Of a DNA stretch of 64,000 bases, positions 64-63,721 are shown piece by piece. Source of the stretch: Craspedostauros australis (Eukaryota); NCBI GenBank assembly GCA_030167865.1, contig JALAGF010005790.1, positions 1-64,000 on the forward strand, in the 5' to 3' direction. Positions within the stretch are counted from its first letter, which is position 1; each line of letters begins with the position of its first letter. Position numbers and translations under genes: made by a program. The notes under the pieces were generated by a model. That model did no database searches. It saw nothing but the letters and a program-made list of their open reading frames with translations, and was not told where the DNA came from.

Positions 64-95
<32 letters not shown>

Positions 96-357: not shown

Positions 358-393
<36 letters not shown>

Positions 394-1932: not shown

Positions 1933-2006
1933 AATTATATAACTTAATGTAATTAATAAGTTATCTAGTTTGTTATCTTACTAAATTTTTATTAATTACA
2001 CAAGTT

Positions 2007-2705: not shown

Positions 2706-2747
2706 CTTTTCAGTATTATTTTATTGATTTAAGTTTAGTGAAAAAAT

Positions 2748-2804
2748 ATGATTAAAAACATTTATTACAAGTCAAACGAACTTGTAATAGATGTTTTTAA
2801 TCAT
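2748..2804. terminator. stem-loop downstream of psaB
   Basis: atgattaaaaacatttattacaag ... cttgtaatagatgtttttaatcat. Confidence 0.7.
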
Positions 2805-2814
2805 ATTTAAACTT

Positions 2815-5016: not shown

Positions 5017-5084
5017 AAATAGTTTATACCTTTATATATATAAATTAATTGTGAATATAAATATCTGAAATAAATTTCATTAAG

Positions 5085-7343: not shown

Positions 7344-7517
7344 TAGTTTTCTCCTTTTGGGAGACAAAAATATAGGAAACACTCATATAAAAAATAAAAA
7401 TAAATCAATTAATTATGAGTTTTCATTATTAAATTGTATACAACTTAATACTTTTTTATAGAAATTAAAACCTTTTTTGTTATAGATAAAAAATTTGTTA
7501 TCTAGTTTATAATAAAA

Positions 7518-7652
7518 CTAGATAACAAAAAAGTATAAACCCAACATATCAGGAAAAAAACGATTTATTTCAATAATAAACCCAGCAGTGAAACTTAGCC
7601 AAATTGTTAAAAGAACGGGAGCTGTTGACAAATATTTTTGAAAATTTTCCAT
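7518..7652 (-). CDS. psaJ: photosystem I subunit IX
   Basis: Manual translation [44 protein letters not shown]. Confidence 0.95.
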
Positions 7653-7710
7653 AAAAATTGTAAAAAATGAATATATAGAGGTATTATTAAATTGAATTTT
7701 TAAAGAAAAC

Positions 7711-8268
7711 CTATCTTGGCGATATAGTTACTTCATTATCTGGTGCCACTAATTCATTACTTATTAATTCTTGCCAAGCAGAAATAGGCCAAATATAGCC
7801 TGTCATCATAATTTTTAGAGCTAATGGAACATTAATAATAATTTCGCTTTCTGTAGGATTTTTAACGGTACTAATAGCTCGTATATATTTTCGACCAACC
7901 CAACCAATCCAACCAGATATATAAATGAAACCAAAACCGGGAAGAATAAATTCAGCTGCATGAGTCCATCGACCATCTGCTATTAAATGCGGAAGGCCAT
8001 CAGTACCACATAATAATTCAGATTTACTATACTTATCAAAACGAGCATTTGTACGATTAATTTGTTGTTTCAAAGCTAAAGCTGGTGGTGAGCCAACTTC
8101 ATATTGAATCATTCGCTGATCTAATTTTTTGATACTTGTTTTTAAACGTTTGTTAAAAGCAGATGACTCGCTACATTTTTTTAATCCTCCAATATCTGCA
8201 AATGCTTGCGTTGGTGTAAAAATTAAAAACAGCGCAAAAAGTAAACTTATTAACTTAGAAAATTTCAT
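7711..8268 (-). CDS. psaF: photosystem I subunit III
   Basis: [19 protein letters not shown]. Confidence 0.98.
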
Positions 8269-8380
8269 TATTTAAATCTATTTATATTATTCCTTTTGGT
8301 AAAAAACATTAAAAAGATAAATCTTGATTAGTGTGGTAATTATTTAAATAGTATAAAGAATGTAATATTTATACATTAAA

Positions 8381-8497
8381 TTATTCAAAATCTTTACGGT
8401 TTGGATTTCTTGAAGGATCACCTGAAAGAAGTCCAAAAATAAATAAAGAAACAAAAAATATAACTGTTGTATAGACTAAAATTTTTAACGTTAGCAT
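8381..8497 (-). CDS. psbI: photosystem II protein I
   Basis: [38 protein letters not shown]. Confidence 0.97.
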
Positions 8498-8586
8498 TTA
8501 ATTTTTTTTAATTACTTTTAATAATATTAATTATACTAAAAGAAAATAATAATAAATCATTTTTTTTTAGCCTAGTTATCTTAGAA

Positions 8587-9282
8587 ATGGATTGGTTGCT
8601 TCATTGGTATCGAACCAACTCTAACAAACCTTACATAAGCAGCTTAACAACTACTTATTTCACAAGTAATGACAATCGGAGACAAGAACGTATTTTTGAT
8701 TTGTTCAAATTATTATCTTTTATCAAAGGGCGCCAAAATTCAGAAATATTTCTGGATGAACAGGTTTATTACCTCGTAGAAGCCCCTCTCAGTCAGTTCA
8801 TCGATAACGCCCACGAACCATCGCCATCGAAGAAAACATTAAGTATCTTACACAATCTACGGACACTGGAATCAATCTTGGAAAGTTTTGACGACTCTCA
8901 ATTTAGAAGTTTAGTCTCCTTTCCATATTTAAAAATTAAGAAAGTTAGTCGGGTTTGGATTTTTACGATTGCTATCCCAAAACAACTTTATCAGTATCCT
9001 TACCCGTATCAATTTACAAAATATTTACTTCAGTCGAAAAATAAGTACCATCAACAGGCTCAATATTTTGTAATTCAAGCAATCGATACTTACTCGTTCG
9101 ATAAATATTTTTCGATACACCAATTTATTTCACAATTCAATCTTTCTAATCAAAAAGTCGCACAAATTAAAGAATTGGTCAAATCTAACATTATTGAGAA
9201 ACAATTTAAAATAATTAATAAGAATGGATCCATAAAATACTCTGCACATTTGATAACAAAACTTATTGGTCAAGCCAATTAA
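8587..9282 (+). pseudogene. C-terminal half of a ~500-aa plasmid-type Rep-like protein family
   Basis: Aligns by eye with 48324-49229 and 63053-63721 (FKLLSFIK/FRFLQFIA/FQLLAYLK; LYQYPYPYQFT/LHLYSYQFSFP); N-terminal half absent. Confidence 0.7.
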
Positions 9283-9518
9283 ATTTATACAAAAGAAAAC
9301 GTAAAATACAACCTTTTATTACAACAAATCTAAGATAGGTTAGACTAACCATATTTAAATTACAAAAAAACCGCTATTAATTACTTTTTTACAAATATAA
9401 AAAGTCTTAAATGGCTAAAGTATATCTAAGAAAAAAAACTATAATTTTATATTTTATTAACCATTGACAGAATATTTTTATATAATTGTAATCTGGAAGT
9501 AATTTTAATAATTTATCT

Positions 9519-10311
9519 ATGACCTTATTTGTAACATTTCCTAAACGACATTATGAAATTAATGATGCTTATGTCATGGCGCTAACTTTTATACTTTTTT
9601 TTCAGTAACTAGGATTGCTAAGGACGTAGTCCAAAGACGTGCTGAAAATAAAAAAAATCTGAGAAAGTCCAGGTTCCAAATCCGCGAGGTGGTACTGCAT
9701 TGCAATTTTCGGATGAAAATGAATTTGCGTTCACCATATTATCATGTATAGCTGATAACGAAACATATTTAGTCACAAACCAAGAAATCAGAAAATTAAT
9801 CTTTAAGTTAGTTAAAAAGAAAGTTGGAAATGCTATCCCAAGTAATCAGGTTAGACTGTTTGTGAGAGTAATAGGGTCCGCTGCAATCGGTATTTTCGGA
9901 GCTCTTTTTGCAAGCTTACCTTACGCTGTCATTTTAATGATAATGTATTTCGATGGAACTCAGAATTATTATGAGTGCAATAAACACTTTGAGCGTTTAC
10001 CTCAAGGTGAACCTATCAATATTTACGAACATAATCCAGCGGATCATTTAGTTATCAGTGATAATGCTGAAGCTCGTCAAGTAGAAATATATAATCCAAA
10101 AGGCGTGACAGAACAAGTCACTCAGGATAAGAGAATAGTTTCTACAACATATCAGAAGTCACGAAAAAAAGTTAAAGAAGTCAAATTTTCTGACTTCAAA
10201 AAGACCGATCCAGTACGATCAACATTTGAAGATTTATCTGAACCACATATCCCCCAAACACCTTGTGTGCTTGACAACATTCATGAAATTATCGAGCTCG
10301 GAATAGATTAA
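9519..10311 (+). pseudogene. frameshifted accessory membrane-protein ORF (203-aa open part at 9700-10311)
   Basis: ATG at 9519 behind TTGACA-17-TGTAAT; frame broken near a poly-T run; hydrophobic segment VIGSAAIGIFGALFASLPYAVILMIMYF. Confidence 0.5.
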
Positions 10312-10607
10312 TTCTTAAGAAACATAACTATAGACTGAGTAAAGAACAACAAAAGCAATCGATTCGTGAAGGTATTTTTAAAGACAATATTTTTTTTAAT
10401 CGGATCTGCTGCTACTGAAATTAGGAATCGACCTGTCTTTCAAAAAAAAACATCACTTTCGTTACCTTGAATTTACCAACTTCAATGTTCTAGTAACAAT
10501 TAATTTATTTGTTGCTAGAACATCTACCAGAACTATATTTTAACATAATTAAAGGGCTTAGAAGTGACCTTAGAAATTATATCTAATATATGTTAAGAAT
10601 CAAGGAT

Positions 10608-10820
10608 TAAAAGTTTTTGGGCTGGAACTAAGATCAATTTCTCCGGTGAAAATGCGGAACAATTTTACAAGATTTTATAACAACACAAGTTTGGAACATT
10701 TTATTGAAGAATCTTGCCATAAAGTACGTGCTAAATCCAAACGAAAACATGCTTCTTGGCATCGGAATTCCAGAGGCTTGATTCTAAAAATTGGCAATAG
10801 AACTAGTTCTAACTACTGCA
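10608..10820 (+). pseudogene. fragment of the Rep_trans-like plasmid ORF family
   Basis: SFWAGTKINFSGENAEQFYK and FIEESCHKVRAKSKRKHASWHRNSRGLILKIGNRTSSNY match 49882-50316. Confidence 0.75.
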
Positions 10821-13827: not shown

Positions 13828-14373
13828 ATGAAAGAAAGAATTCGTCATGAGAAAATTATTGGATCCCGACGTTTTAGTAATTATTTTTGGTCCTTATTTT
13901 TATCAGGGGGAGGACTTGGATTTTTATTAGCGGGTCTTTCAAGTTATTGTAAAATAAATTTTTTACCCTTTACAAATCCAACCGAACTGATTTTTATACC
14001 ACAAGGTTTAATAATGATGTTTTACGGAACACTAAGTTTAGGGTTTAGTTTTTATATTATATTTACCATTATTCTAGATATTGGTGGTGGATATAATGAA
14101 TATAATCAGAATGAAAATTTGGTCAAACTTGTTCGTAAAGGTTTTCCAGGAAAAAATCGTAATATTCTTTTAACATATTCTTTAACAAATATAAGATCCA
14201 TCGGGATAAAAATCACGGAAGGATTAAATCCAACACGTTGTATTTACTTATGTTTAAAAGATGAAAGAATTATACCACTTACTCAAGTTCAAGAACCTAC
14301 TTCCATTTCAAACTTAGAGGAAGAGGCTGCAGATTTGGCAAAATTTTTGAACTTAAACTTAGAAAATTTATAA
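13828..14373 (+). CDS. ycf4: PSI assembly protein Ycf4
   Basis: GSRRFSNYFW; FIPQGLIMMFYG. Confidence 0.97.
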   Translation: MKERIRHEKIIGSRRFSNYFWSLFLSGGGLGFLLAGLSSYCKINFLPFTNPTELIFIPQGLIMMFYGTLSLGFSFYIIFTIILDIGGGYNEYNQNENLVKLVRKGFPGKNRNILLTYSLTNIRSIGIKITEGLNPTRCIYLCLKDERIIPLTQVQEPTSISNLEEEAADLAKFLNLNLENL

Positions 14374-43785: not shown

Positions 43786-44718
43786 ATGGCAACTAATAAG
43801 TTTTTTAAAAGTCTTTTATTTGCTTTAACATTATTTAGTTTTTGCGTCCAAGACTCGTCAGCATATCCCGTTTTTGCACAACAAAATTATTCTAATCCAC
43901 GTGCGGCAAATGGAAAATTAGCTTGTGCAAATTGTCATTTAAATCAAAAATCTATTGAGATCGAAGCACCACAAGCTGTTCTTCCTAATTCTATTTTTGA
44001 AATAGAAATTAAAGTACCTTATGACACTGCTAAAAAACAAATTGGTGCAAATGGTAAAGAAGCTGATATTAATGTTGGTGGCATCTTAATGTTACCTAAA
44101 GGTTTTAAATTAGCATCAAAAAGTCAAATTTCTGCAGAAGTAAAAGCTAAAAATAAGGGTGTCTTTATTTCACCTTATAGTAGTGAATTTGATAATATTT
44201 TTGTTGTAGGTCCCATTGCTGGTAAAACACATCAAGAATTATTATTCCCAGTAGTTGCACCGGATCCAGAGAAAAATTCTGAGATTAAATATTTAACATA
44301 TCCATTTTATGCTGGTGGAAACCGTGGCCGAGGTCAAGTTTATCCAACAGGAGAAAAAAGTAATGTGAATGTTTTTGGTGCTACTCAAGCAGGTCAAATA
44401 ACACAAATTCAAACTTCTAGTAAAGGTGAATCAAATTTAATAATCGTTAATTCAAATGGTGTAGAAACATCTCAAGTTGTACCAAAAGGTTTAACTTTAG
44501 TGGTTAAAGAAGGAGATATTGTTAAATTAGATCAGAGTCTAAATCTTGATCCTAATATGGGAGGTTTTGGTCAAGAAGAATCTGAATTAGTACTACAAAA
44601 TCCTATTCGAATCTTTGGATACTTAGCATTTTGTTTCTGTGTTCTAGTCACACAAATTTTATTAGTTTTAAAGAAAAAACAATTCGAGAAAGTTCAGGCT
44701 GCCGAACTTAACTTTTAA
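43786..44718 (+). CDS. petA: apocytochrome f
   Basis: YPVFAQQ; CANCH. Confidence 0.99.
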
Positions 44719-44780
44719 ACTTTTTTTAAAATCTTGGAATGATGATTCTATTGCATTCCAAGATTTTAAAAAAAGTTTAA
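44715..44780. terminator. bidirectional stem-loop between convergent petA and petF
   Basis: ttaaactttttttaaaatcttggaatg / cattccaagattttaaaaaaagtttaa. Confidence 0.75.
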
Positions 44781-44783
44781 AAG

Positions 44784-45083
44784 TTAATATAATTCATCTT
44801 CTTGATGAACTAAGATTGTACAATCTGATTTTGGATAAGCAATACATGTTAGCACAAATCCTCCATCTGTTTGCTCTTCATCTAAAAATGTTTGTTCGGA
44901 TTGATCAATTTCTCCTGCACTTACTTTACCTGCACAAGTTGAACAAGCACCTGCCCGACATGAATATGGTAATTCAATACCCTGATCTTCTGCTGCATCT
45001 AAAACAAATACATCATCAGCACAATCAATAGTTGTATTAATATCATGCTCCTCACTTAATAATGTTACTTTATATGTAACCAT
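44784..45083 (-). CDS. petF: ferredoxin [2Fe-2S]
   Basis: [16 protein letters not shown]. Confidence 0.99.
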
Positions 45084-45193
45084 ATAACTCCTTAATCTAA
45101 CTAATTATATCGCAATAGTAAAATTTTTTTACTATTACTTTACTAATGTATATTATATCACGTAAGTTTACTACAAATAAATTTTTTTTTAAT

Positions 45194-45556
45194 TTATTTA
45201 AACGTTTGTTTTAAACGACTAGCTTTCCCTTTTAAATTTCTTAAATAGTATAGTTTTGATCGACGAATTTTGGATGATCTTAATACATTTATTGAATTAA
45301 CTTTAGGCGAATGAATTAAGAAAATTCTTTCAATTCCTATACCTTGTAAAGTTTTACGAACTGTAATTGTTGTATTAATTGAACTATTTTTTTGGGCAAT
45401 AATTGTCCCTTCATAAAATTGAACTCGTTCTTTATCTCCTTCAATAATTTTAACACCAATTTTTACATTATCTCCAATTTTTAAAATAGGTAAATTGGTT
45501 TTCATAAAATTTGTTTCAAGGCTTCTGATTATTTTTTCTGCATTTAATTTAACCAT
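45194..45556 (-). CDS. rpl19: ribosomal protein L19
   Basis: ERVQFYEG; RRSKLYYLR. Confidence 0.98.
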   Translation of the reverse strand: MVKLNAEKIIRSLETNFMKTNLPILKIGDNVKIGVKIIEGDKERVQFYEGTIIAQKNSSINTTITVRKTLQGIGIERIFLIHSPKVNSINVLRSSKIRRSKLYYLRNLKGKASRLKQTFK

Positions 45557-45769
45557 AAATTCTAATTATTAAATGTAATTATTTATTCTTATTGAGTTTA
45601 CAACTATATGTAAAAAAAAACAATACGAAAAATAAAAATATCAATTAAAATGTAATAATTTAAACTCTTTTTTTTAACTTTAAATACTAAGAAAAATACT
45701 CGTTAATGACTTTCAAACGAGGTAGTTAAAATTATCCTTACAGTCAAAAATGAAGATTAATGTAAAGTA

Positions 45770-45848
45770 TAGTAAAGAAAAAAAATTCTAAAAAGTGACT
45801 CCTAGTCTGTTGCTATGCAACACCAAATGAAAGTTAAAGAAATAATAT
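45770..45848 (+). repeat. left terminal inverted repeat (79 bp)
   Basis: tagtaaagaaaaaaaattctaaaaagtgactcctagtctgttgctatgcaacaccaaatgaaagttaaagaaataatat. Confidence 0.92.
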
Positions 45849-46881
45849 GACGAAAAATTTCTTAAATAAAATGACAAAATTAAAAAAAAGTAAAGAGTTA
45901 AAAAGTAACTAAACAAAATAGAGGGCATGTATTTGGAATTGTATTACATCCTAAGTTTCCAGATGATTACATATCACCGGTTTGGAATGAATTGGATAAT
46001 GGTAAGATTGTGGAATAATTAGAAGTTTTAAAGTTTCCAATTAAGTTTGACGTTAGTGAGTTGTTGAATTCAATATTATTTCCAACATTAAAAGGAAATC
46101 TAAATGAAACGCTAGATTGGTGATTTCAGCTTGAATTTGGAGATGAAAATGGAGTTCCACATTATCAAGCTTATGCCGAATTAAAATCTTTATCACATAT
46201 TTCAGATGTAAGAAGGGTTATTAATGACTCATTTGACACTTTTAACTCTGTTGAAATAGTATATAACAAACAAGGTATTGATGAATATTGTCAGAAGCCA
46301 ATTAAACATTTAAACATACTTGGAAACTAGACTATTTAGAAAAAAAACCACAATTACAGACTGTTTTAGATAATCCATACCCTTGGCAACGATATTTGCA
46401 TCAGGTACTAAGTGAATTACCTGATGATAGATGTATTAATTGGGTGGTAGATACAGTAGGTAATTCTGGTAAATTAGCTTTTTATATGTCTTACGTTAGT
46501 CAAGAGTCAACAGATGCAATTTACTTATCATTAGATAATTTAGATCGTATGACTTTATCTTTAGTCATAAAGATTCAGGAATATCGAAAAAGATATAATA
46601 AAGATCCTAGAGTTATAATGTTTGATTTTCCTCGAAATGTTGATGTCATCAATATGAATAGATCGACATCTTTAATGGAACAAGTGAAATCAGGTGTCAT
46701 TGAAACAAATTTTAGTGGTCATCATAAGGAAGTCGCTATACCAAACATTCATGTTTTAGTATTTTCAAATCAAGTACATGATTTGTCAATATTATCAGAA
46801 GATCGTTGGTTGATTTGGAGATTATCGGGAGAACAATTTAATCACGTTCTGTGTTCCGTTAAGATACCCTTTGGGGTTTAG
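45847..46881 (+). pseudogene. CRESS-DNA-virus-type Rep (HUH endonuclease + SF3 helicase), disrupted
   Basis: FQLEFGDENGVPHYQAY (motif II), DEYCQK (motif III), WVVDTVGNSGK (Walker A), IMFDFPR (Walker B), VLVFSN (motif C), LSEDRW; stops at 46016 and 46121, frameshifts ~45900 and ~46310. Confidence 0.8.
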
Positions 46882-46910
46882 TTCAAAACTTACTAAAATT
46901 ACAAATAATT

Positions 46911-47114
46911 TTACTCAAACATAAGGAGAAAACTTATGACTTTTGAAAATGAGTCACTACCTGATGAATGAGCTGGTTGTATTACTGAGCCAAACACAAA
47001 TAGGGCCATTAGCGCAGCAATTATTGACCTACGAAATTTACCAGACTTTTTATAAAAATAGAAAAACAGACCTAAAAATATTAAAGGTCTCAAGAAAAAA
47101 AGTTCCTTTTTCAA
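46911..47114 (-). pseudogene. truncated paralog of the leader region of the 249-aa toxin-like ORF
   Basis: FLGLFFYFYKKSGKFRRSIIAA...PAHSS vs FLGLFFYLYKTTGKFRQSLIGA...PAHSS; both start at TTG. Confidence 0.75.
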
Positions 47115-47136
47115 AAATTATACATAGGTTATTAAA

Positions 47137-47649
47137 ATGACATTGCAAAATGGTAATTTAAATCGTAAATCATTAAAAACATTGTATTTAATTGTCTGCT
47201 CTTGGTTTTTTCTTAGTGTTTATTTTGAGTATTATTCATCTAAGCTTTTTTATAATTGTTATGATAATATTTACCGAAAGAATCTTTATAAAAGTATTAA
47301 ATTGAGGGAAAATTTTAATTTTAAAACTATAATAAAATTTATTCTTCGTTATTTTTTAAAATTTTTTAAAAATTGGGTTGAACGTATTAGTAAAAAATTT
47401 TCTTTTGTACTTTCCTCAATCAACTTACTGATTGAGATCTTAAAAGTTTTAAGACTGAAATTTCAGTCAATATTTAAATTTAAATATAATTTTTGCCTGT
47501 TAAAAATTTTGGTACTCTCTTTTTGGCAATTTTTTATGATATTCTATTCGTTTGTCGATGAGCTGCTTTTTATCCATAATATAATTAAATTTGTAGTTAA
47601 GTGGAGGCAGTTTATATTACTTTTAATGTTGGAATCTGTGTTAAAATGA
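47137..47649 (+). CDS. hypothetical basic/hydrophobic protein
   Basis: 170-aa ORF; stop overlaps the next ATG (ATGA). Confidence 0.4.
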   Translation: MTLQNGNLNRKSLKTLYLIVCSWFFLSVYFEYYSSKLFYNCYDNIYRKNLYKSIKLRENFNFKTIIKFILRYFLKFFKNWVERISKKFSFVLSSINLLIEILKVLRLKFQSIFKFKYNFCLLKILVLSFWQFFMIFYSFVDELLFIHNIIKFVVKWRQFILLLMLESVLK

Positions 47650-48071
47650 GCTTTGTATACATTCTATACTTGATTCTTCTAGGGCTATTTGGTGTATTAT
47701 TGGGCTTTTTATTAGGTATGTGTAGCCGCAACAAAGAGATATATCTGTTCACTCTCGTACGTTTATTAGAAATTCTTTATACTAACGGATTTGATTCTGT
47801 TTTATTGGAATGTTTTCATGATTCATCTTTGCAACCGAATAAAGCTGAGCAGTTTTCTAAATTTTCTTTAAAAACTCTCGAACAAATTAAGCCGCGTCCG
47901 GAAAAAATAATGTTAAAAGAACCAGATACAATCTCTCAAATACCATTACCAATTTTGAGTGATCCATTTTTATATACAGACATCTATTATATTTTGGAAG
48001 AACCCACAAATTATAAATTTGAATTATTTAAATTCTATCAAAATGTGAATGAGAAAGTAATATCTATATAA
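47646..48071 (+). CDS. hypothetical protein with N-terminal TM helix
   Basis: MSFVYILYLILLGLFGVLLGFLLGM; ATGA coupling to the upstream ORF. Confidence 0.5.
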   Translation: MSFVYILYLILLGLFGVLLGFLLGMCSRNKEIYLFTLVRLLEILYTNGFDSVLLECFHDSSLQPNKAEQFSKFSLKTLEQIKPRPEKIMLKEPDTISQIPLPILSDPFLYTDIYYILEEPTNYKFELFKFYQNVNEKVISI

Positions 48072-48323
48072 TTCAACACAGCGAATTTGATTACACAATA
48101 ATCCTGATCGTCTGGAATTCGATCGGTTCGTTTTTGACTAATGAGACGTTTTTGGGGTAGTTAAATTTCGGTCCGTTTTTTTTATTTTAGGGGACTAAAA
48201 TTTAACTGCCATTCCTTTTATAATTTTTTCATCGTAAGTGTGATAGTATCTGCGTTTTTTCTTCAGCGTAAACCTAACTTTTTTCATTTTTTGTTTCCCA
48301 TTTTAACGGGTTAGTCTAACCAA

Positions 48324-49839
48324 TTAAAATAACTGTTCATAGAAATGTATTACCTGACTCTGTCCAATAAGTAAGGGGGTAAGTTTTTGTATTTGAATAA
48401 TTTGTTTATTTTTATTTTTAATTTTAAACTGTATATGGCAATGTTCTCGAATAAGTTTGTGTTTCAAAGCTTGTTGAAATAGGTATTGAAGTAATTGTTT
48501 AAGTTGTGCCTTTTTTTGATTATTAGCATGTTTGTATTTATCCAATATTTTGTCTGACTCAAAAGTTTTTGTTAAGCTTTCAGTGCTATAACTTTGAATG
48601 AATTGAAGTCTGACTTGCAATTCGAAATCCTTTTGGTAAGTGAGAAAACAGGTGGGAAAAGAAAACTGATAGCTGTATAGGTGTAGCTCTTGCAAAATAG
48701 CTATTTTGGCTATCCAAGATCCATATTCTTGAAATTCTTTTCTAGTTTTAACGACGGGGAAGATTCTAGAACTTTGAAAACTATCGTTAGTGAAAATCTT
48801 GAGAAATGGATTCATGGTTTGTAATTCCTCGAAAAAGTTAATCCACTGTTCTCGTTGATATTGGTTTTTGTTTTCAACTTGAATAAAATCCATAAACTCG
48901 GCAATTTTAAATTGAATGAGAGAATATGTGTTACCCCGAAAAGTTTCTGTATTAGCGGATTGAGTCCGACTAAAAGCGATAAATTGTAAAAACCTAAAAA
49001 AGATTTTTTTGTCGTCGTTCTTCATTAAGTTAAAGTTTTGCTTGAAATATCCTGTTACCAATGCTAATGATTCTTTGTTTTGGTTTTGTCTTCTGAGATA
49101 ATCAATTAGCCAGCCAGTATAATTTTCATCGAGCGTCAGAACTTTTTTCGTATATTTAAAAAAGCGTTGTGTCATTATTTGCTCGAACTTTTCTTCTTCT
49201 ATCTGGTGGTCGAAGAGTAGTTCTTGCACTGCTTTTAGTTGTGATCCTCTTTGTTCTAATTCAAATCGGATGTTGTCGTCGTTTTCGTAAATACGGTAAT
49301 GGTTTGGACTTCCTCGTTTTCCGATTTTTAAAATAAAACCGCGAGAATTTTATTGTAAGCTGACGTATTTTATGGCGTTATTTGCGCTTACTTTCTGATA
49401 ACATTGGTTGAAAAACGATTCCACATTTTGATTATTGTTTATTTTGTTCAATGAATAATGTACATCTAGACGGCTTAAGCTGAGCCTAGGTATTTTTATT
49501 CTTTCTGGATCAAAAACTATCCAATCAACTTTATTCGCAAGAATATAATTGTAATATTGGTTAGCGTTTTCTCCAGAAAAATCAATTTTAAAACCGTTCC
49601 AATATATGTATGTCAGAATCTCTATATGCTCTGAGATGAACTTGATATTTGTTTTTAAAATCACGAAACAGAATTTCTTTATTTCTGTCGTATCCGATAG
49701 CAAAGGTGGAATTAAAGCCAAAATTTTGAAATAAATATCCGGCAATTCTTTCGACTTGTTCTCTGTCTACTAGACCTTTGATGTTGAACCCAATCCAATC
49801 GACGGCTAAGTTTTCTGATTTAAAAGGAAGTTGTTTCAT
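48324..49839 (-). pseudogene. near full-length ~500-aa plasmid-type protein with Rep_trans-like motifs
   Basis: Three ORF-track pieces join via a 4-bp duplication (~49605) and one in-frame TAA (49350-52); motifs VDWIGFN, LSRLDVHY, LKIGKRGSPNHYRIYEN..RFELE. Confidence 0.8.
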
Positions 49840-49881
49840 TGGCTTCTTTGTTATGAATAAAATATCGTCTATAAAAACATT

Positions 49882-50448
49882 TTATAGCTCTTTAACTAAT
49901 TCTTTTTTTAATTCCAACTCGAACCTCAGTCCTTTATCATTTTCATAAACTCGATAAAACTTCGAACTACCCCTGTGACCAATTCTCAAAACCAAGCCAG
50001 TTGAACCTAAATTCCACTCGGCTTTTCTTCTTTTATCTTTAGCTTTAACTCTTTGACAGCATTTTTCCATAAAATCTTCAACCAATTCGTTTTGATCATT
50101 CAGTTTAGTTTCTCTAAAATAACAAATATCCATTCGAGCAAGAGTTACATTTAAACCGTCAAAAATACCCCAATTAAATTGATTTTTTTTTACTTTATTG
50201 TAAATATGATCACCATTATCCCCGGAAAAATGTATTTTAGTGCCTACCCAAAAACTTTTTATTTGTAGATTATAGTCAAACTGATGAAAAGAAACATTAT
50301 GCTGATTTTTATTCATATAAAAAAATTTATTTTCTTGCCAGCCTTGAGTCCGTTCGTATCTTATAAAAGTTGAATTAAAACCAAATGATTGAAATAGGTA
50401 AAAAGCTATTTTCTTAAGATCTTCTAATTCGATAAAACCTTGTATATT
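49882..50448 (-). pseudogene. second, truncated copy (N-terminal half) of the same family
   Basis: YLFQSFGFNSTF, LARMDICY, LRIGHRGSSKFYRVYENDKGLRFELE. Confidence 0.78.
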
Positions 50449-50469
50449 TGTTCACTTCCTCTGGTTTCA

Positions 50470-50604
50470 TTACTCTATTTGACCCAATTTGATTAATTCA
50501 GCCTTTTCTGACTCCAGAGAAGAATTTTTGACTTGTTCTTTGGAACTAATCCTTGAATACCTGTATCGATTATTTTTAGGAATTTTTTCAAAACGTATGT
50601 TCAT
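50470..50604 (-). pseudogene. serC: serine recombinase (resolvase) N-terminal remnant
   Basis: MNIRFEKIPKNNRYRYSRISSKEQVKNSSLESEKAELIKLG matches the YxRVS...Q...SL catalytic motif. Confidence 0.7.
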
Positions 50605-50832
50605 GAATAGAAGTTCTACTGTAACATCTTAATTGTATAGAAACAATATCATAATCATAATAGTATTTCAAGGGTTTAAAATTAGGTATTTATTGACACT
50701 TACTAGGATAGGGATTAATGAAATATTTCTATCTACCGGATCAGATAATCAAATATGCTCTGAAATGATCTTAAAATTGTCTAAAAAGCAAATCAATTAG
50801 TTTTAGGTAGTATAAATCATCTCAGAAATCCC

Positions 50833-51183
50833 TTAGCCTTCTTTGAACTCATTTCCACTGTGATAATGTCTAATCAACTTACAGATTAATAGATTGTAAA
50901 CTGAATTTGCTCCGCTATCAAAAGGTGAAAAATAAATTTTAGATAATTTATAATTCGTTTCAAGAGATTTATTAACCAATTCTAACCCTGAAACTACTTG
51001 TTCTAAAACTTCTTCTTTTGAAATTCGGATTCTGCTTTTATCAATGTTAGGAAAATCCCATTCGATTACTTCAATATTATTTTCACTTCTGCGTTTGTCC
51101 TCAAAAGCCACACCTAAAATATTATCCTGCGAACCAGTTATTCGAATAATTTTATATATATTATCTTTTTTTAAAAATCCCAT
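50833..51183 (-). CDS. 116-aa putative (orphan) immunity-like protein
   Basis: Intact ORF co-oriented downstream of the toxin-like pair; RITGSQDNILG...EQVVSG pattern recalls small genes in bacterial toxin/immunity arrays. Confidence 0.5.
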   Translation of the reverse strand: MGFLKKDNIYKIIRITGSQDNILGVAFEDKRRSENNIEVIEWDFPNIDKSRIRISKEEVLEQVVSGLELVNKSLETNYKLSKIYFSPFDSGANSVYNLLICKLIRHYHSGNEFKEG

Positions 51184-51284
51184 TTTGTTGAGTTTTAATT
51201 TAATGTTAAAATTAATTAATATTATTTCTCATCTGGTTAAACAAATATCCATTCGAGCAAGAGTTACATTTCAAACCCAAGAAA

Positions 51285-51650
51285 TCAGGGAAATTCCTCG
51301 GCGTCTTTGGCTTGTAATTGATTAAATACAGCTATGTCAATATCCGTTGCAAAATGGTATAATTTTAACCAATAAGCGTCTGGTTTATCTTTAATATAAG
51401 CCTTAATTGCTTCTTGAATAATCCCCTTAGTCAATTTTTGAACAATAATCCAAGGAAGCCCTGGACCATAAAAATTGACCTTGTCCTTTTCCATTAAATA
51501 TTGTAAATTTTGAGGTGTCCCGACGATAATTGTTAAACTAAATCCATCTTGTAACGTGACAAATACTTCAATGTTTGAGTTGTAAACGTCCTCAATTTCG
51601 CTTAACTGAGTTTGATCTATTTCAATTAAAAACCTACTATTTTTTTCCAT
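51285..51650 (-). CDS. 121-aa putative immunity/antitoxin protein
   Basis: AAGGAG SD; 33 bp downstream of the toxin-like gene; NIEVFVTLQDG...GTPQNL...IIVQKLT. Confidence 0.6.
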   Translation of the reverse strand: MEKNSRFLIEIDQTQLSEIEDVYNSNIEVFVTLQDGFSLTIIVGTPQNLQYLMEKDKVNFYGPGLPWIIVQKLTKGIIQEAIKAYIKDKPDAYWLKLYHFATDIDIAVFNQLQAKDAEEFP

Positions 51651-51683
51651 GAAATTTTCTCCTTCAATTTAAAAATTATAATT

Positions 51684-52433
51684 TTATTTACCGTATAGTT
51701 CGTTCAATCGATTTATTACAGTTTGTTGATTCTTTTTATTTTTTCCTGATTTACCTAGAATTTCTATTATACCGTCCACTTCGCGAACGTAAAGTCGACT
51801 ACCATTCCTAGCACGATGCTCTACAATACCGTTGCCAATAGACTTCCAACCAATTCCAGGATTTTTATTTCCCTTGGCTAATTGGTCTTCTAAGTGATTA
51901 ACATCTTTTTGCACATGAGTATTTTCGCAAGCTTTTTGTGCTTCTTTAATTAATTTTTTATCTTCGTTTATTCTATAACGAATTTCTTGTTTTTGTTCAT
52001 TAGAGTTACATTGATTATTTGACTCGGAATCTGATTCACTGACCTTGTCAATTAGATAAGAGTAGTCTCTGAGACTGTCAACTCGTCCTTTCGTTTCTTC
52101 AACTGATTCTGTTTGTGGGTAGTTTGGAATCTCGTCTCCACCATCTCTACCTGAACCACCATTATTAGGTTTTCCAGGGCCTGAACCATTATTGTTTCCA
52201 AAAATACCCCCACGTTTTGGAGAACGGCTCCGATGTGGTTGATGTTGTGGTGTAAAAGCATCGGCCATATCTGATGAATGAGCTGGTGGCAGGTTTGAAA
52301 AATAGAAACTTATAGCCACAAAGGCACCAATGAGTGATTGACGAAATTTACCTGTAGTTTTATACAAATAGAAAAATAAACCTAAAAATGTTAAAGTTCC
52401 TACTAATCCGAATGTTAACAAAGATTTTTTCAA
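51684..52433 (-). CDS. 249-aa putative polymorphic toxin: hydrophobic leader, low-complexity linker, RelE-like C-terminal domain
   Basis: TTG start with AAGGGGG upstream; C-terminus LAKGNKNPGIGWKSIGNGIVEHRARNGSRLYVR...IEILGKSGK. Confidence 0.65.
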   Translation of the reverse strand: MKKSLLTFGLVGTLTFLGLFFYLYKTTGKFRQSLIGAFVAISFYFSNLPPAHSSDMADAFTPQHQPHRSRSPKRGGIFGNNNGSGPGKPNNGGSGRDGGDEIPNYPQTESVEETKGRVDSLRDYSYLIDKVSESDSESNNQCNSNEQKQEIRYRINEDKKLIKEAQKACENTHVQKDVNHLEDQLAKGNKNPGIGWKSIGNGIVEHRARNGSRLYVREVDGIIEILGKSGKNKKNQQTVINRLNELYGK

Positions 52434-52781
52434 AATATTCTCACCCCCCTTAAATAATAATTAATATTACATACTAGTAATTGATATTAATTATTATTTA
52501 TTTTTTAAGTAAACCTTTGTATGCTTTAATGTGCTTTACAAAACACTGAAGGTACGTTTTGTGTACTGGTTAGAGTACCCTTTTCAACCAGGTTCAAAAC
52601 TTACCAAAAACACTAAATATTAATTTCAGCGATGAAAAATTAGGTCTTGATTATTTGGTTTTCAATTTACCAAGGTTTAGAACAGGAACGCCAGAAGCGC
52701 ATCTCAAGCATCCAGTAATAGTTTTTAAAAAAATAAAAATGAATCGTATCTAAATATAGCTAGATACGATTCATAATGGAT

Positions 52782-53459
52782 TTAAGTTAGCGGAATATAC
52801 TGTACTTTTGGTTTAGATTTAAAAAGTTTAATTCTTGAATTAAACTTAGTTTTAATCTTAGAATATTTTGTTAAATTCTTTTTTAATTTAACTTTAAGAT
52901 ATCTAAAAATCTTTTTAACAATAAAGACAATAACGTAACCACACCCTGTAGTAAGAATAAAAATTCCGGTAATTGCTAATTGACACTGTATATGTTGTTT
53001 TCTAGTAAATCTTCTAAATCTTCTGTTTGGAAGAGCAACTACAAATGGAATAGATCCACCGCCACCTGATTTGGATACAGTCTCAATATATTGGGAAAGA
53101 AGATATATGAATCCACCAGCACTTGCATTTAAGACTGGAGATCCAGTCTTACTAAGTAAACCGGTTCCACTAAAAAGAAATGCAAGTGTGGCAACTTTTT
53201 AAGCTCTTGTTACACCTGTAACTTTACTAATAAAATCGTAAGTCTGAGGCGCACAACTAATGATCGGCGGCAAAAGTTTTGTAGCTTCAAAAGGCCGATC
53301 GGTTAAAACTCCAAAGCCATAACCTAAGGCTTGAGCCCCTACATTTTTTATAATTTCTCCACTACCTTGCGCTAAAAATTCCGGGATTGTAAAAGCATAT
53401 GTTACTAAATCGCGACTCATCATAAGAAGTGCGATTCGAAAATAGAGTTCTGGAGGCAT
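52782..53459 (-). pseudogene. ~225-codon hydrophobic ORF with one internal stop
   Basis: Frame stays open after TAA at 53199-53201 to 52782; followed by hairpin 52739-52774. Confidence 0.6.
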
Positions 53460-53471
53460 AATTGTAATTAG

Positions 53472-53582
53472 TTATAAATTGTAAATGTATTTTGCTAGAT
53501 TAGCGGATGAACCAAAAATAAAACCGATTAAAACAATTTTAATCATAGTTAAATATGGTTCAGGAATGTCTGATATATTCAT
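53472..53582 (-). CDS. 36-aa single-TM peptide (putative)
   Basis: MNISDIPEPYLTMIKIVLIGFIFGSSANLAKYIYNL, directly upstream of the 225-codon ORF. Confidence 0.35.
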   Translation of the reverse strand: MNISDIPEPYLTMIKIVLIGFIFGSSANLAKYIYNL

Positions 53583-53747
53583 GTTTTATGGAGCTAGATA
53601 AATAATTAAAAATACTTTACCTAATATTTTATTAGATCGCAATATTAAATTTTAAAAAATTATTTTATTTTTCCTCTTCATATTTCATATTTTAAATAAA
53701 CTTAATTTATTTCATTCTAGGGGCTTATTTTAGCCTCTGAGAAGCTA

Positions 53748-53879
53748 TTATAGTTGCTCAATCAGTTTCTGTCTTTCTTGGTAAGATAATTGCTTAACGT
53801 AGGCCGAAGTAGTATCTAACTTTTGATGACCAATTGTTTGTTTGATAAATTCAATATCTTTGGTATCTTTCCATAATTT
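53748..53879 (-). pseudogene. tyrC: tyrosine recombinase C-terminal remnant
   Basis: LWKDTKDIEFIKQTIGHQKLDTTSAYV: box II GH....T..Y with the catalytic Tyr. Confidence 0.8.
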
Positions 53880-53953
53880 TTTTGAAATATTTTTCTAACT
53901 ACCTATTTACAAAATCTTCATTGTGGTTTCTAATGTTTATCATTAACTATTGA

Positions 53954-54310
53954 ATGGACGTTATGTTACCAGCTCAAACATATGCATTGGTAAAAAATTA
54001 TGATCATAAATTAAGATTAACTACTTGGGTAGTTGTTATTAACGTTGTAAAAAGAAAGAGTATGAAGAATGACAAAAATACTAAATACAGAAAATTAAAT
54101 ATTCCAGATGAATTTTTTACAGGATTTAAAGAAGAAAATGACCATAAAAATTGGTTTGAAAATGCCAAACCTAGCTACACAAAGGAAATGTACAGTGAAA
54201 TCCGAGAACTAAATAATCATGTTCGTGGAAAAGTAATTGAATATTGCAAAAAGTCATCTGAAAAAAGAAACATTAAATTAGTTGATAAAATAAAATCTTT
54301 ATATATGTAA
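53954..54310 (+). CDS. hypothetical basic protein
   Basis: 118-aa ORF only; no motif recognised. Confidence 0.35.
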   Translation: MDVMLPAQTYALVKNYDHKLRLTTWVVVINVVKRKSMKNDKNTKYRKLNIPDEFFTGFKEENDHKNWFENAKPSYTKEMYSEIRELNNHVRGKVIEYCKKSSEKRNIKLVDKIKSLYM

Positions 54311-54317
54311 AGATTTT

Positions 54318-54597
54318 TTAACATTTTTCATAAATTTTCGTAACTAGATGAATGGCTGAACCTATAGTAACTGGATTTGGACTTGCAACGGAAACCGCAA
54401 TGACCGCGCCAGCTCCAATACAATGAGCTACTAATCTTACAGGAGGAGGGGCGCAGCAATCCAGCACAGTTAAAGTAATATTTTTTGTTAAGGTCAAGGG
54501 ATTGTTGAATTTGTAATATTAACCCCATTTTTAACAAGTTTTAAAGCTCGTCCTCCAGGAAAAACAAAGTGATACCACTTGTGATTGAGTCTAACAT
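54318..54597 (-). pseudogene. frameshifted ~93-aa hydrophobic Cys/Gly/Ala-rich ORF
   Basis: Reconstructed MLDSITSGI/FVFPGGRALKLVKNGVNITNST/PLTLTKNITLTVLDCCAPPPVRLVAHCIGAGAVIAVSVASPNPVTIGSAIHLVTKIYEKC. Confidence 0.55.
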
Positions 54598-54974
54598 TTT
54601 AACCTCCGGTAATTGTTATTATAATTTTGGCTAATGAAGAATTTCTTAAAGGTGATATCCCAATTAATAAACCTATGCCAACAGAAATGAATGTTTTCAT
54701 AATAGAATTGTTCCTTAATTATTAGTCAAGCGTGACGTTAAAAACGTAGTAATTAAACAATTACCTGAACAATGAGAATTACACAATACTTTTAATTTTT
54801 TTGCAACATTTATGAGTTATTTTCGAAAATCCCCAAAATTTAACCAGGTTGACAACCCGGTTGATAGCAAATAATCTGTATAAAATACATTATTTATAAT
54901 ACTTTATAAGTATTATTTAATAGTTTTGTCAACTTATCAACCATAAGTATATATATATATATTTAATTAAGGTT

Positions 54975-55053
54975 ATATTATTTCTTTAACTTTGATTTAG
55001 TGTTGCATAGCAACAGACTAGGAGTCACTTTTTAGAATTTTTTTTCTTTGCTA
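54975..55053 (-). repeat. right terminal inverted repeat (79 bp)
   Basis: Reverse complement of 45770-45848 with 3 mismatches. Confidence 0.92.
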
Positions 55054-55056
55054 ACT

Positions 55057-55141
55057 TGCATTCGACTGGGTTCGAACCAGTGATGTTCCATTGGAAAACG
55101 GATTATGAGTCCGGTGCCTTCAACCACTCGGCCACGAATGC
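55057..55141 (-). tRNA. trnM: tRNA-Met(CAU), elongator
   Basis: Anticodon loop CTCATAA; long variable arm. Confidence 0.9.
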
Positions 55142-55146
55142 AAATC

Positions 55147-55471
55147 TGGAGTTGATGGGAATTGAACCCACGTCCATTTAAAATTTCAAAGAAACTCGTT
55201 CACAGATATAGTTACGGAGAACAATAAGTTGATAAAATAACTCTAAATTATAATTGACTTTTTGTCTAGTTATAAAGAAAAATATTTGATAATGGAAAAA
55301 AATCTATCTCTTACAAAGCAAAGCTTAAAGATTTAGAGTTTTTTACCGTGAAAATAAATGGAATAATGTTATTAGCAATTATTTTTAAATTGTATGGTTT
55401 TTACGAAGAATAGCAACTTCGATCTGAATCATATCTTTTAAAATTTTAAATGTCGAAACCAAGTCAACCCC
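55147..55471 (-). ncRNA. ssrA: tmRNA
   Basis: 5' GGGGTTGAC..TTTCGAC, 3' T-arm ending CTCCA; tag ANNIIPFIFTVKNSKSLSFAL*. Confidence 0.92.
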
Positions 55472-55482
55472 TTATTAAACTT

Positions 55483-55555
55483 TAAGCATGAAGGGAATTG
55501 AACCCTTGACTCTCAGATTCGGAATCTGATGCTCTATCCACTGAGCTACATGCTT
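55483..55555 (-). tRNA. trnR: tRNA-Arg(CCG)
   Basis: Anticodon loop TTCCGAA. Confidence 0.92.
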
Positions 55556-55629
55556 AAAAGAAAGTATAAATATTAAATTTTCAAAGTGAAAATTTAATAT
55601 TAAATGTAATGAGAATTATAGTAAAAGAA

Positions 55630-56121
55630 TTAATAATAAATTTTTCCACCACCCCATTTTTCTGTAACAATTTTAGGTTGTAATAAAATATGGCCAGAAA
55701 TTGCATATAGATCTTCATCAGTCATTGAACGCATACGTGGGTATAAATCAGCACTTTTAATACTTGGATGAACTTCAGCAATCGATTCTAAACCATCGTA
55801 TGAAGTAGGATCTTTTAAATAATCTATTAAAGCCTCGATATTATCACGACGTGGTGTTGCTAAGCTTAAAGCTTCTGGATCTAAACCAACATTAGGGTTT
55901 GTTTTACTTACGCCACCTACATGACAAGCACCACATGTGGCATTAAAAAGACGTTTACCACGTTTAACTTGTTCAGGTGTTAAAACGATAGTTTTTCCTG
56001 TTGAGTCTTTCACAACAGTTCTTGTTGCTTCATCTAAATCAATCGCAGATACAGATGTTACAAAAAAACTAAAAAAAGATATGACTAGTAGAGAAAAAAT
56101 AGATATAGATTTTTTAAGCAT
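55630..56121 (-). CDS. psbV: cytochrome c550
   Basis: CGACH; EKWGGGKIYY. Confidence 0.99.
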   Translation of the reverse strand: MLKKSISIFSLLVISFFSFFVTSVSAIDLDEATRTVVKDSTGKTIVLTPEQVKRGKRLFNATCGACHVGGVSKTNPNVGLDPEALSLATPRRDNIEALIDYLKDPTSYDGLESIAEVHPSIKSADLYPRMRSMTDEDLYAISGHILLQPKIVTEKWGGGKIYY

Positions 56122-56153
56122 AGTTTAAATAAAATTATTTATAAATTTGAAAC

Positions 56154-56450
56154 CTAGATTTTTTTTTTTAATTTTGCTAATTTTGCTATCAGCCCTCGAA
56201 GACGAATATTTTCCCATCCAGTTACTAAAACTGTTATAATGATAAGAACTTGACTAAACAATAAAATAGGATCGAGACGCCAGCCGTGAATTATTAGAAT
56301 ACAACTATATAATAATCCAATAGTGGCAAAAAAAATATCTTCATCTCTAGCAATTTCTGGTTTAACATTTCGAAGAAAATATAAAATTACTACCCCGATT
56401 CCTACAAGAATTCCTAAAAAGATATTTGCACCAAAACTAAAATTGATCAT
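56154..56450 (-). CDS. ycf66: Ycf66
   Basis: PEIARDEDIFFATIGL; GWRLDPILLF. Confidence 0.95.
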   Translation of the reverse strand: MINFSFGANIFLGILVGIGVVILYFLRNVKPEIARDEDIFFATIGLLYSCILIIHGWRLDPILLFSQVLIIITVLVTGWENIRLRGLIAKLAKLKKKI

Positions 56451-56534
56451 AGAGAATGAAAATTAATTTTTAATATATTTTTATATAAGATTAACTAAAA
56501 CTTTGAAACTATAAGAGTATTGGTCTTATTCTAA

Positions 56535-56651
56535 TTAGTTTCTTGTTACTTTATCAGATTTACTAATGATAATTAATGCAATACTAATTCCAAGTACAAC
56601 AATACCGCCTGCTACTAAACTAGATATAAAATTTGCTAATGAAGTTGTCAT
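56535..56651 (-). CDS. psbX: photosystem II protein X
   Basis: MTTSLANFISSLVAGGIVV...SKSDKVTRN. Confidence 0.93.
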   Translation of the reverse strand: MTTSLANFISSLVAGGIVVLGISIALIIISKSDKVTRN

Positions 56652-56868
56652 TTATGATTTCCTGATCATTTTAATAAGAAATAAGTTAAAAGTGTAACAT
56701 TAACTATAATAGTTATTGTATCAGCTTTTAAAAAAAAATCTTATTAATATTTATTTAATAAATAACCACAAAATTTTTATAACTTCCTCTTATGGTTCTT
56801 TTAACTAGAAGTCGCTTTTAAATTAGGAAAAAATAAAATAATCAATTAAAGAATATTAATAATTAACA

Positions 56869-56958
56869 TATAGTTTCAATACAAACTTAAAAAAATCTTA
56901 TGCTGCTACTTTACAGTTCTGACATGATAAATTTTTCAAAAGATCTATTGAAACTATA
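56869..56958 (-). ncRNA. ffs: SRP RNA (4.5S)
   Basis: Long closing stem plus helix-8 motif TCAGAACT-GTAA-AGTAGCAGC. Confidence 0.8.
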
Positions 56959-57085
56959 CTAGAAAAGATTATACTGAAAACAAGAAAAATAGTCAACTCT
57001 CTTATACTGAACTATAAAGTAAATATTATTAAAAAACTTGTCAATTTACTTCAAGAATGATAAGATAAAATTGTACACCATTCAA

Positions 57086-62940: not shown

Positions 62941-63010
62941 AAAAGAATCGTTCAGCTGTTTAGATATTCTCAGGCTCCTGAGAATATCTAAACAGCTGAA
63001 CGATTCTTTT
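62941..63010. repeat. perfect palindrome, 34-bp arms with 2-nt spacer
   Basis: aaaagaatcgttcagctgtttagatattctcagg-ct-cctgagaatatctaaacagctgaacgattctttt. Confidence 0.95.
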
Positions 63011-63052
63011 CAAATTAGAAACAGCGTAAATTACTCAGACACAACAATTAAC

Positions 63053-63721
63053 ATGTACTATATTGATCAGTGCCCAATTGAAAAACTTCAAAAGGTATAC
63101 TTGATCAAGTTTTTTCAACTTTTAGCGTATCTGAAATCCTTGGATCACTATAAAACAGCAAACTTAACGTCTAAGTATAGGCAGTATAAATTTCCGGTAA
63201 GAGACTTTTTTAATTATCTAAAGAACAACATAGTATTGGAACTTTTGTCAGATAAAAGCTATCGAATGTTGGTAACAATTCCTGAGGCTTACGTATGGAA
63301 GAGTCAAAATCAATGGATTACCCAAGTTTTGTTAGCGGATGAATTATTCGATTATTCAGAACCATTTTTATTCACTGACTATTTCAGAAAAAAAAAAATG
63401 ACAACAGATGAGTTCTCTGTATTATTTCATATCCTACAGAATTTCAGTGTTCCTACTCTTACAAAGGAATTCGATGTTCCTGGATTCTTGCGTAATTACC
63501 CTTCTAAGCTAAACGGTGCACGAAAGCAAAAAATCAAATGTTTATTTTTACGTTATATCAAAATTTTACAGCAGGAAGAAAAAATTCAAGACCTAGTTTT
63601 GTTCCCTTCCCTTAGCACGTCTAACCCAAAGCGCCTAATTAAAATTTCTGACTTAAACCAAAAACATTTAATGCAGTTGTTTGTTATTTTTGAAGTCCTT
63701 GATGTTCAATTTGTGATTTAG
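63053..63721 (+). pseudogene. C-terminal half of the plasmid-type Rep-like family
   Basis: FFQLLAYLK, YRQYKFPVRDF, ELFDYSEPFLF, KQKIKCLF match 8587-9282 and 48324-49229. Confidence 0.7.

Follow-up and report, generated by a model that had tools for sequence, protein, structure and literature searches.

Plasmid DNA of the pCf1/pCf2 type has been absorbed into the plastid genomes of diatoms and dinotoms, according to two reports (Imanian et al. 2010, PMC2873285; Ruck et al. 2014, PMC3971590). Diatom plastid genomes hold kilobases of foreign DNA. Of the additional sequence in their intergenic regions, less than 3% could be assigned to plasmids in the second report (Ruck et al. 2014, PMC3971590); the first mentions palindromes at the borders of two regions in K. 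foliaceum (Imanian et al. 2010, PMC2873285). The stretch considered here is a 64-kb window (contig JALAGF010005790.1, positions 1 to 64,000) of a diatom-type plastid genome, that of Craspedostauros australis, in which the spacer between rpl19 and trnM(CAU) is occupied by an island of plasmid-derived DNA with the two arms of an inverted repeat of 82 nucleotides (nt) at its borders. The island consists of decayed blocks from two small rolling-circle plasmid families, one pCf-like, with an initiator of Rep_trans fold, a serine recombinase and a small Cys-rich open reading frame (ORF), and the other encoding a replication initiator (Rep) like those of the CRESS DNA viruses, whose single-stranded genomes are circular and encode a Rep. 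The reading preferred here, which is given about an even chance of being correct, is that the island is a plasmid graveyard and not a working mobile element, and that its arms are copies of the origin or control region of the Rep plasmid, left beside trnM by an inverted or linearised form of it.

The island is similar to the pCf-type inserts in being intergenic, low in gene density and GC-richer, and in containing a degenerate plasmid ORF of about 480-500 amino acids and serC/tyrC genes or fragments, as these inserts are characterized in both reports (PMC2873285, PMC3971590). It differs from the K. foliaceum inserts at its borders, since unrelated palindromes are described there (PMC2873285), whereas the same 82-nt sequence stands in inverted orientation at both borders here. 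It also contains a pseudogene of a CRESS-like Rep with an HUH nuclease and a superfamily 3 (SF3) helicase, which goes unmentioned in the available portions of the two reports (PMC2873285, PMC3971590).

The inverted repeat is real and statistically solid. A repeat search returned two arms of 82 nt, 95% complementary and with 9120 nt between them, the next-longest inverted pair in the 13-kb region being of 43 nt at 74%; the repeat of 79 nt (76 of 79 positions identical) reported in the original prediction is the same one, delimited slightly shorter. In a BLAST-based comparison the arms gave the best non-local inverted match of the interval 44000-57000, at 132 bits, while the inverted matches of 100 dinucleotide shuffles of that interval had a maximum of 47.3 bits and a mean of 31.9. 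In the alignment about 50 nt match perfectly as a core and four positions are mismatched; a 9-nt gap in the right copy follows, beyond which 10 further columns align (9/10 matching), and the homology reaches about 45870 on the left and about 54962 on the right. A 29-nt core was found in the window only in the two arms, with up to 3 mismatches allowed, and in 0 of 100 shuffles, and a word-7 BLAST of the 64 kb gave no third copy. A dispersed repeat, for which a check had been proposed, is ruled out within the window by this count of just two copies.

The arms bracket all plasmid-derived DNA between rpl19 and the trnM(CAU)-ssrA-trnR cluster, so that the earlier placement of the repeats at the borders of the foreign ORFs is borne out. 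The right arm ends at 55053 and the tRNA 3' end lies at 55056 (ARAGORN) or 55057 (Rfam), a gap of 2-3 nt, in agreement with the 3 bp first noted. Both arms begin with the same outer base in the alignment, and the flanks (...AAAGTA on the left, ACTTGC... on the right) have no direct repeat in common, confirming that a target-site duplication is lacking. The tetranucleotide AAGT precedes both arms, the right-hand one being made of the last trnM base plus three; an extension of the repeat by AAGT into trnM is not significant. The left outer flank gave no tRNA remnant, its score of 11 being equalled by 84% of shuffles.

Each arm contains the two dyads that had been pointed out earlier, GACT-cct-AGTC and TGTTGC-tat-GCAACA (45796-45822 in the left arm), and these are predicted to fold in the left as well as in the right arm (-6.6 kcal/mol, z -2.6 to -2.8). 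A third hairpin at 45837-45863 (AAGAAAT/ATTTCTT, a 7-bp stem and a 13-nt loop) is confined to the left copy, its 3' half being absent from the right one owing to the 9-nt gap. CRESS replicons have a stem-loop origin with a canonical nonanucleotide ahead of rep. The loop of the third hairpin holds (T)AATATGAC; in this hairpin TAATATGAC is no more than an approximation to the canonical nonanucleotide, and the relatives show other hairpins. Only such small internal dyads were seen in the arms, with no terminal fold-back of the kind expected of a linear replicon, no Rfam family and no site in a promoter and terminator scan; promoter-like sites in the region as a whole number 65, against 49.7±6.7 expected. 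The GC content of the arms is 27-28% (48% in the core), that of the island interior 29.8%, and that of six native spacers 9-21%. The left arm corresponds to the last ~100 nt ahead of the Rep pseudogene, and its homology to the right arm goes as far as the probable start codon of the Rep, the ATG at 45871. The original prediction had the left repeat running directly into the ATG of the Rep; an ATG does lie in the arm at 45847-45849, but its frame stops after 21 codons, whereas similarity to Reps sets in at about 45887-45917, in a different frame, and belongs to a pseudogene.

Coding traces of the Rep extend from about 45887 to 46866 and keep the motifs HYQ, YCQK and GNSGK. The N-terminal frame differs from that of the body, in-frame TAA and TGA codons occur at 46016 and 46121, a frameshift lies near 46297-46309, and the C-terminus is short of about 100 codons. 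An alternative genetic code was considered for the in-frame stops and rejected: TAA, TGA and TAG all occur along with frameshifts, which points to decay and not to recoding. Relatives of this Rep comprise 37 proteins of 384-456 amino acids, mostly on contigs of 1.5-5 kb, and an intact copy is encoded on a free circle of 2920 bp from IMG/VR (L095). Since searches against Pfam and against PDB sequences gave nothing significant, a comparison of folds was needed. The AlphaFold model of an intact relative, P0079 (predicted local distance difference test score, pLDDT, of 86.9), matches the Vientovirus Rep, the Rep68 protein of adeno-associated virus 2 (AAV2) and the Rep nuclease domains of gemini-, circo- and nanoviruses, so that the designation as CRESS-like, with HUH nuclease and SF3 helicase, is correct at the level of the predicted fold of this relative, the island copy itself being dead. 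In four of four regions upstream of related Reps (two in L044, one each in L034 and L095) a GC-richer run of hairpins is found 60-280 nt from the ATG, with a (TA)n tract ahead of it in each case; the sequences differ, and when inspected by eye the upstream regions of L095, L044 and L034 were unrelated in sequence to the arms. The contig L044, a 30-kb composite from a metagenome, holds three copies of the CRESS-like Rep together with a serine recombinase and a Rep_trans-type initiator (1-10654), which shows that plasmids of the two families are found together and recombine in places other than the C. australis genome as well.

The remainder of the interior includes the pCf-like blocks. Its longest ORF (48324-49349) has 62 relatives, most of about 500 amino acids on contigs of ~3 kb, and the reference set consisted of 78 metagenome loci encoding this 500-amino-acid protein, gathered by a profile scan of metagenome contigs. 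Eight of the 78 are circles of 3.0-4.9 kb, as judged by terminal overlap or self-match. One of them, L010, encodes a small serine recombinase (Pfam Resolvase and HTH_7) with the 500-amino-acid gene directly after it, a Cys-rich ORF of 93 amino acids (93-100 among these plasmids) and a cluster of palindromic iterons. The 500-amino-acid protein has no Pfam match at threshold; its model (pLDDT 75.6) resembles the Rep_trans rolling-circle initiators 4cij (E 7e-7), 4cwe and 4cwc. Matches to the 78 loci in blastn and blastx span the island from 45917 to 54703, and the best plasmid partner and the orientation change from block to block. Remnants of two copies of the ~480-500-amino-acid ORF and a serC stub are present, genes that are adjacent on the free circle L010, and the block of initiator copy B ends at 48160, the centre of the palindromic iteron cluster of the plasmid. 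The serine and tyrosine recombinases of the plasmid families were confirmed by Pfam, and the earlier statement that the segment is foreign and has accumulated several plasmid pieces is upheld by these blocks from two rolling-circle plasmid families. The features of the island and of its surroundings are listed in Table 1.

Table 1. Features of the rpl19-trnM(CAU) island and its neighbours in the C. australis window
Feature	Position	Strand	Basis or remark
petA	43786-44718		left neighbour of the island
petF	44784-45083		left neighbour of the island
rpl19, native left neighbour	45194..45556	-	Pfam Ribosomal_L19, E 7e-42
Left arm of the inverted repeat	45770..45851	+	repeat search, alignment, folding
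CRESS-like Rep pseudogene (HUH nuclease and SF3 helicase)	45871..46881	+	homology; fold of an intact relative
68-codon fragment	46911..47117	-	paralogous to the ORF258 N-terminus; forms a direct repeat of 132 nt (73%) with 52268-52399
Two overlapping hydrophobic ORFs, 170 and 156 amino acids	47137..48071	+	no relative in the 78-locus comparison
pCf ORF484-like rolling-circle initiator, copy B, and 3' flank	48160..49836	-	one frameshift, in-frame TAA at 49352
Initiator copy A, N-terminal 189 codons only	49884..50451	-	91% DNA identity to L042
Serine recombinase (serC) N-terminal stub, ~54-72 codons	50482..50697	-	blast matches, Pfam
ORF116, intact	50836..51183	-	homologue of ORFs of 116-121 amino acids in L042 and L030
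ORF121, intact	51288..51650	-	84% identity with an ORF on the circular plasmid L073
ORF258 (249 amino acids from TTG)	51687..52460	-	transmembrane segment, low-complexity linker, conserved C-terminal domain common to L073, L049 and L024
Short match to L029	52986-53174		blastn/blastx
Tyrosine recombinase C-terminal stub, 42 codons	53751..53879	-	blastx, Pfam
ORF118	53954..54310	+	no relative found in the 78-locus comparison
Small Cys-rich plasmid ORF, frameshifted, and flank	54313..54703	-	orientation towards initiator copy B reversed as against circles L010, L004 and L008
AT-rich filler	54704..54971	.	unmatched; AACCNGGTTGA twice in tandem, at 54842 and 54854; (TA)8 at ~54948-54963
Right arm of the inverted repeat	54972..55053	-	repeat search, alignment, folding
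trnM(CAU), native, long variable arm	55057..55141	-	ARAGORN, Rfam
ssrA (tmRNA gene)	55147-55471		beyond trnM
trnR(ccg)	55482-55556		beyond ssrA

Three other kinds of system invite comparison. With the CRESS-DNA viruses and plasmids (Cressdnaviricota, including gemini-, nano- and circoviruses) the island shares the HUH plus SF3 fold predicted for the intact relatives of its pseudogene, and these relatives lie on circles of ~3 kb with hairpins just ahead of rep; it differs in that Pfam gave no match to a Rep family, L095 showed no capsid gene and the island copy is dead. The linear replicons of the parvovirus and AAV type, which integrate in a Rep-dependent manner, show the same succession of terminal repeat, Rep with HUH and SF3 domains and terminal repeat, again with no target-site duplication, and AAV2 Rep68 is the second-best structural match to the modelled Rep family, whereas the arms of the island do not form a terminal T- or Y-shaped hairpin and its interior is unrelated plasmid debris. 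Lastly, homologous recombination between short inverted repeats produces inversion isomers of plastid genomes, as in conifers and transplastomic tobacco. The island likewise has an inverted repeat of the tens to hundreds of nt around a single-copy segment in a recombination-proficient organelle, with the difference that its arms are just 82 nt long.

On the preferred reading the arms are foreign, and represent the hairpin-rich origin or control region of the CRESS-like Rep plasmid, in view of their island-like GC content, their position ahead of the Rep start and the hairpin runs ahead of the Reps of relatives; this attribution is by position, composition and analogy. The Rep-upstream region would then be present a second time, inverted, as the right arm, which has lost its Rep. 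Because integration of a circle by a single crossover gives direct repeats, something other than that must have taken place. A terminus defined by the plasmid, for instance the nick site of Rep or the centre of an origin palindrome, may have been joined to a break 2-3 nt behind trnM, a possibility favoured by the identical outer nucleotide of both copies, the missing target-site duplication, the other block that ends at an origin-type palindrome and the border palindromes of K. foliaceum. The entering DNA could have been a linear, inverted rolling-circle intermediate ('snap-back' or tail-to-tail), or else two insertions of the same plasmid in opposite orientation may have been broken at the same site. 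Joining would have proceeded by illegitimate repair, and later plasmid pieces would have been inserted and rearranged inside. Today the arms would be at most a substrate for plastid homologous recombination, and an occasional flip-flop inversion with gene conversion could explain 95% identity and a perfect core of 50 nt around a decayed interior. What is left open of the integrated linear replicon that had first been suggested is this weaker form, a linearised or inverted intermediate of a rolling-circle plasmid, and no polymerase (of the family-B type typical of linear replicons) was seen among the island ORFs.

Several observations weigh against this attribution of the arms. It has no homology behind it: the arms gave no match to the 78 pCf-like loci, L095, L044 or L034 in blastn or blastn-short, and the best Smith-Waterman score was 33, within the shuffled maxima of 27-35, so that the proposed check of the repeat against related plasmids yielded no homologue. 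Scans with exact patterns of the arm core gave 0 hits in viral contigs and, with the loops left free, 0 in metagenome contigs. Inward of the right arm no Rep remnant was detected by blastx or by a repeat search, and an inverted dimer would therefore need the loss of its entire right half. A position 2-3 nt from the tRNA end is improbable by chance in a spacer of ~300 nt, and a native tRNA trailer fits it equally well. The equivalence with pCf1/pCf2, for its part, is drawn from the gene content and sizes given in one report and not from sequence (PMC2873285).

The competitor that survives best, a minority possibility of some weight, has the right arm as the native 3' trailer of trnM and the left arm as its inverted copy, which would have arisen as the foreign DNA was being joined in, for instance through fold-back priming at the small dyads or a template switch in the course of break repair, so that this DNA afterwards stood at the centre of the palindrome. 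The right arm does begin 2-3 nt after the tRNA, as a trailer would, its small perfect dyads could prime a fold-back, and the repeat is absent from all sampled plasmids. In addition, an analogous inverted repeat of 158 nt (7323-7476 and 14115-14270, 78%), likewise unmatched in the sampled plasmids, frames a plasmid island between trnY and trnK in L006, a 138-kb plastid contig of another diatom, and this is a possible second case of an island bounded by an inverted repeat. The GC content of the arms and above all of their core exceeds, however, that of all six native spacers, the inverted copy would need to break off precisely at both the tRNA boundary and the Rep start codon, and the left outer flank is devoid of a tRNA remnant. 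The preferred attribution of the arms to the Rep plasmid could also be carried further, to a property of the plasmids themselves: CRESS-like Rep plasmids of diatom plastids might make linear intermediates ended by inverted repeats (snap-back or rolling-hairpin-like), with ends set by the Rep nick site and joined into plastid DNA in a Rep-dependent manner 3' of a short target (AAGT). This is regarded as improbable.

Quite improbable is a site-specific invertible segment, one of the readings first offered, in which the arms would be the crossover sites of a serine invertase or tyrosine recombinase acting in trans from plasmids or from elsewhere in the plastid genome. The plasmid families do encode serine recombinases of the resolvase/invertase type as well as tyrosine recombinases, the arms are inverted and have dyads, and the initiator and small-ORF blocks are inverted in comparison with L010, L004 and L008, the plasmid palindrome marking a breakpoint. 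Yet the 64 kb of the window contain no serine or tyrosine recombinase in intact form, only the two stubs listed in Table 1, of which the serC stub is all that corresponds to an invertase of the Hin/Gin type, and there is no functional cargo for which orientation would matter. Half-sites of invertases are roughly 12 bp long; the arm dyads, of 4 and 6 bp, are unlike them and unlike the palindromic iterons of the plasmids. Very improbable is integration into the 3' end of trnM by a tyrosine integrase, in the manner of bacterial genomic islands. The island lies within 2-3 nt of a tRNA 3' end and near ssrA, it includes a tyrosine-recombinase remnant, and plasmid-derived DNA faces tRNA 3' ends also in L014 and L015 (trnK; L014 2157-2294) and in L023 and L045 (trnL-UAA twice; L023 7940-9042, L045 1012-1203); but integration of a circle would leave direct repeats that include the tRNA 3' end, whereas the repeats of the island stand in inverted orientation and no part of the tRNA is present twice, and the 42-codon remnant, 1.1 kb from the border, is all there is of an integrase. 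Hardly credible, finally, is the mobile element with terminal inverted repeats of the original prediction, if taken as a transposon or insertion sequence that inserted itself into the spacer and gathered plasmid DNA afterwards, for despite repeats that stand exactly at the borders there is no transposase-like ORF by Pfam (16 island ORFs) or blastx, no target-site duplication and no second copy in the window or the scanned collections. Present-day autonomous mobility is unlikely, given that neither an intact serine or tyrosine recombinase nor a transposase is encoded in the window, and the island is probably neither a transposon nor a dedicated invertible switch.

The island sits amid conserved plastid genes, petA, petF and rpl19 on the left and trnM, ssrA and trnR on the right, with psbV and ycf66 further right of this cluster, and the spacer from rpl19 to the left arm (45557-45769) has a GC content of 17.8%, as in native spacers. 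The trnM-ssrA-trnR(ccg) cluster is also present on an unrelated plastid fragment, L082 (tRNA part at 1-57), and is for this reason considered native and conserved. This fragment, which ends inside trnM, is the sole plastid one among 13 loci from a scan of genome contigs with the tRNA pattern; three viral loci from the tRNA-pattern scan were unrelated by BLAST. The tRNA(CAU) beside ssrA is a type-II tRNA of 85-87 nt, with a long variable arm, a Leu/Ser-like D arm and discriminator A, and two tRNA(CAU) genes of ordinary length are found at 22130 and 60456 of the window. Between the convergent petA and petF a perfect stem of 34 bp with a 12-nt loop (44708-44787) is probably a 3' end or stability element shared by the two genes. 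The spacer between ycf66 and trnF (56451-57085), unusually long at 635 bp, with 21% GC and several inverted repeats of 28-30 nt, may be another old insertion. In an exact look-up of 10 window proteins only those of petA and petF were on record, and no island ORF; 5% of words were present in each of two sediment metagenomes.

Inside the island, the ORFs of 116, 121 and 258 codons (50836-52460) are adjacent and intact among pseudogenes. The linker of ORF258 is rich in Gly, Asn and Ser, its C-terminal domain gave a weak ParE-like lead in a protein atlas (0.81), and the ORF pair may be a retained addiction-type module. The self-complementary motif AACCNGGTTGA, a possible iteron, occurs exactly three times in the window, always in the island (52584-52594 on the minus strand, 54842-54852 and 54854-54864 on the plus strand), and the tandem pair lies 110 nt from the right arm. 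In the plasmid-derived DNA of L023 a plasmid iteron palindrome of 48 nt stands 14 nt from trnL, and two copies of the small ORF form an inverted pair. Further remnants of the 500-amino-acid initiator are found at 8554-9345, 10600-10695 and 63008-63715 of the window, and the plastid genome thus holds at least three other plasmid-derived patches. The 82-mer is absent from these three patches, and no comparable inverted repeat surrounds the patch at 8.5-11 kb.

A literature search found no paper on a plasmid island bounded by an inverted repeat at rpl19-trnM, nor on plasmids with a CRESS-like Rep in diatom plastids. The phenomenon itself, plasmid DNA absorbed by diatom plastid genomes, is a known one, and what these comparisons suggest is that the border structure is unusual and mechanistically suggestive, with no counterpart in the literature searched. 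The island offers an entry case that can be dissected, with two plasmid families, at least one boundary at an origin-type palindrome and inverted copies of a Rep-upstream region as its frame. The 82-nt arms predict inversion isomers at a low level, which is relevant to genome assembly and to plastid engineering at this locus. If the ends were set by the nick sites of Rep, the entry of foreign DNA would be a by-product of rolling-circle replication and not of plasmid recombinases; and if linear intermediates were indeed formed in a Rep-dependent manner, the island would be an organellar parallel to the biology of parvoviruses and AAV and would give the foreign DNA of diatom plastids a mechanistic source. 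The structure of its borders thus offers a hint of the way in which plasmids of this kind are opened and find their way into chloroplast DNA.

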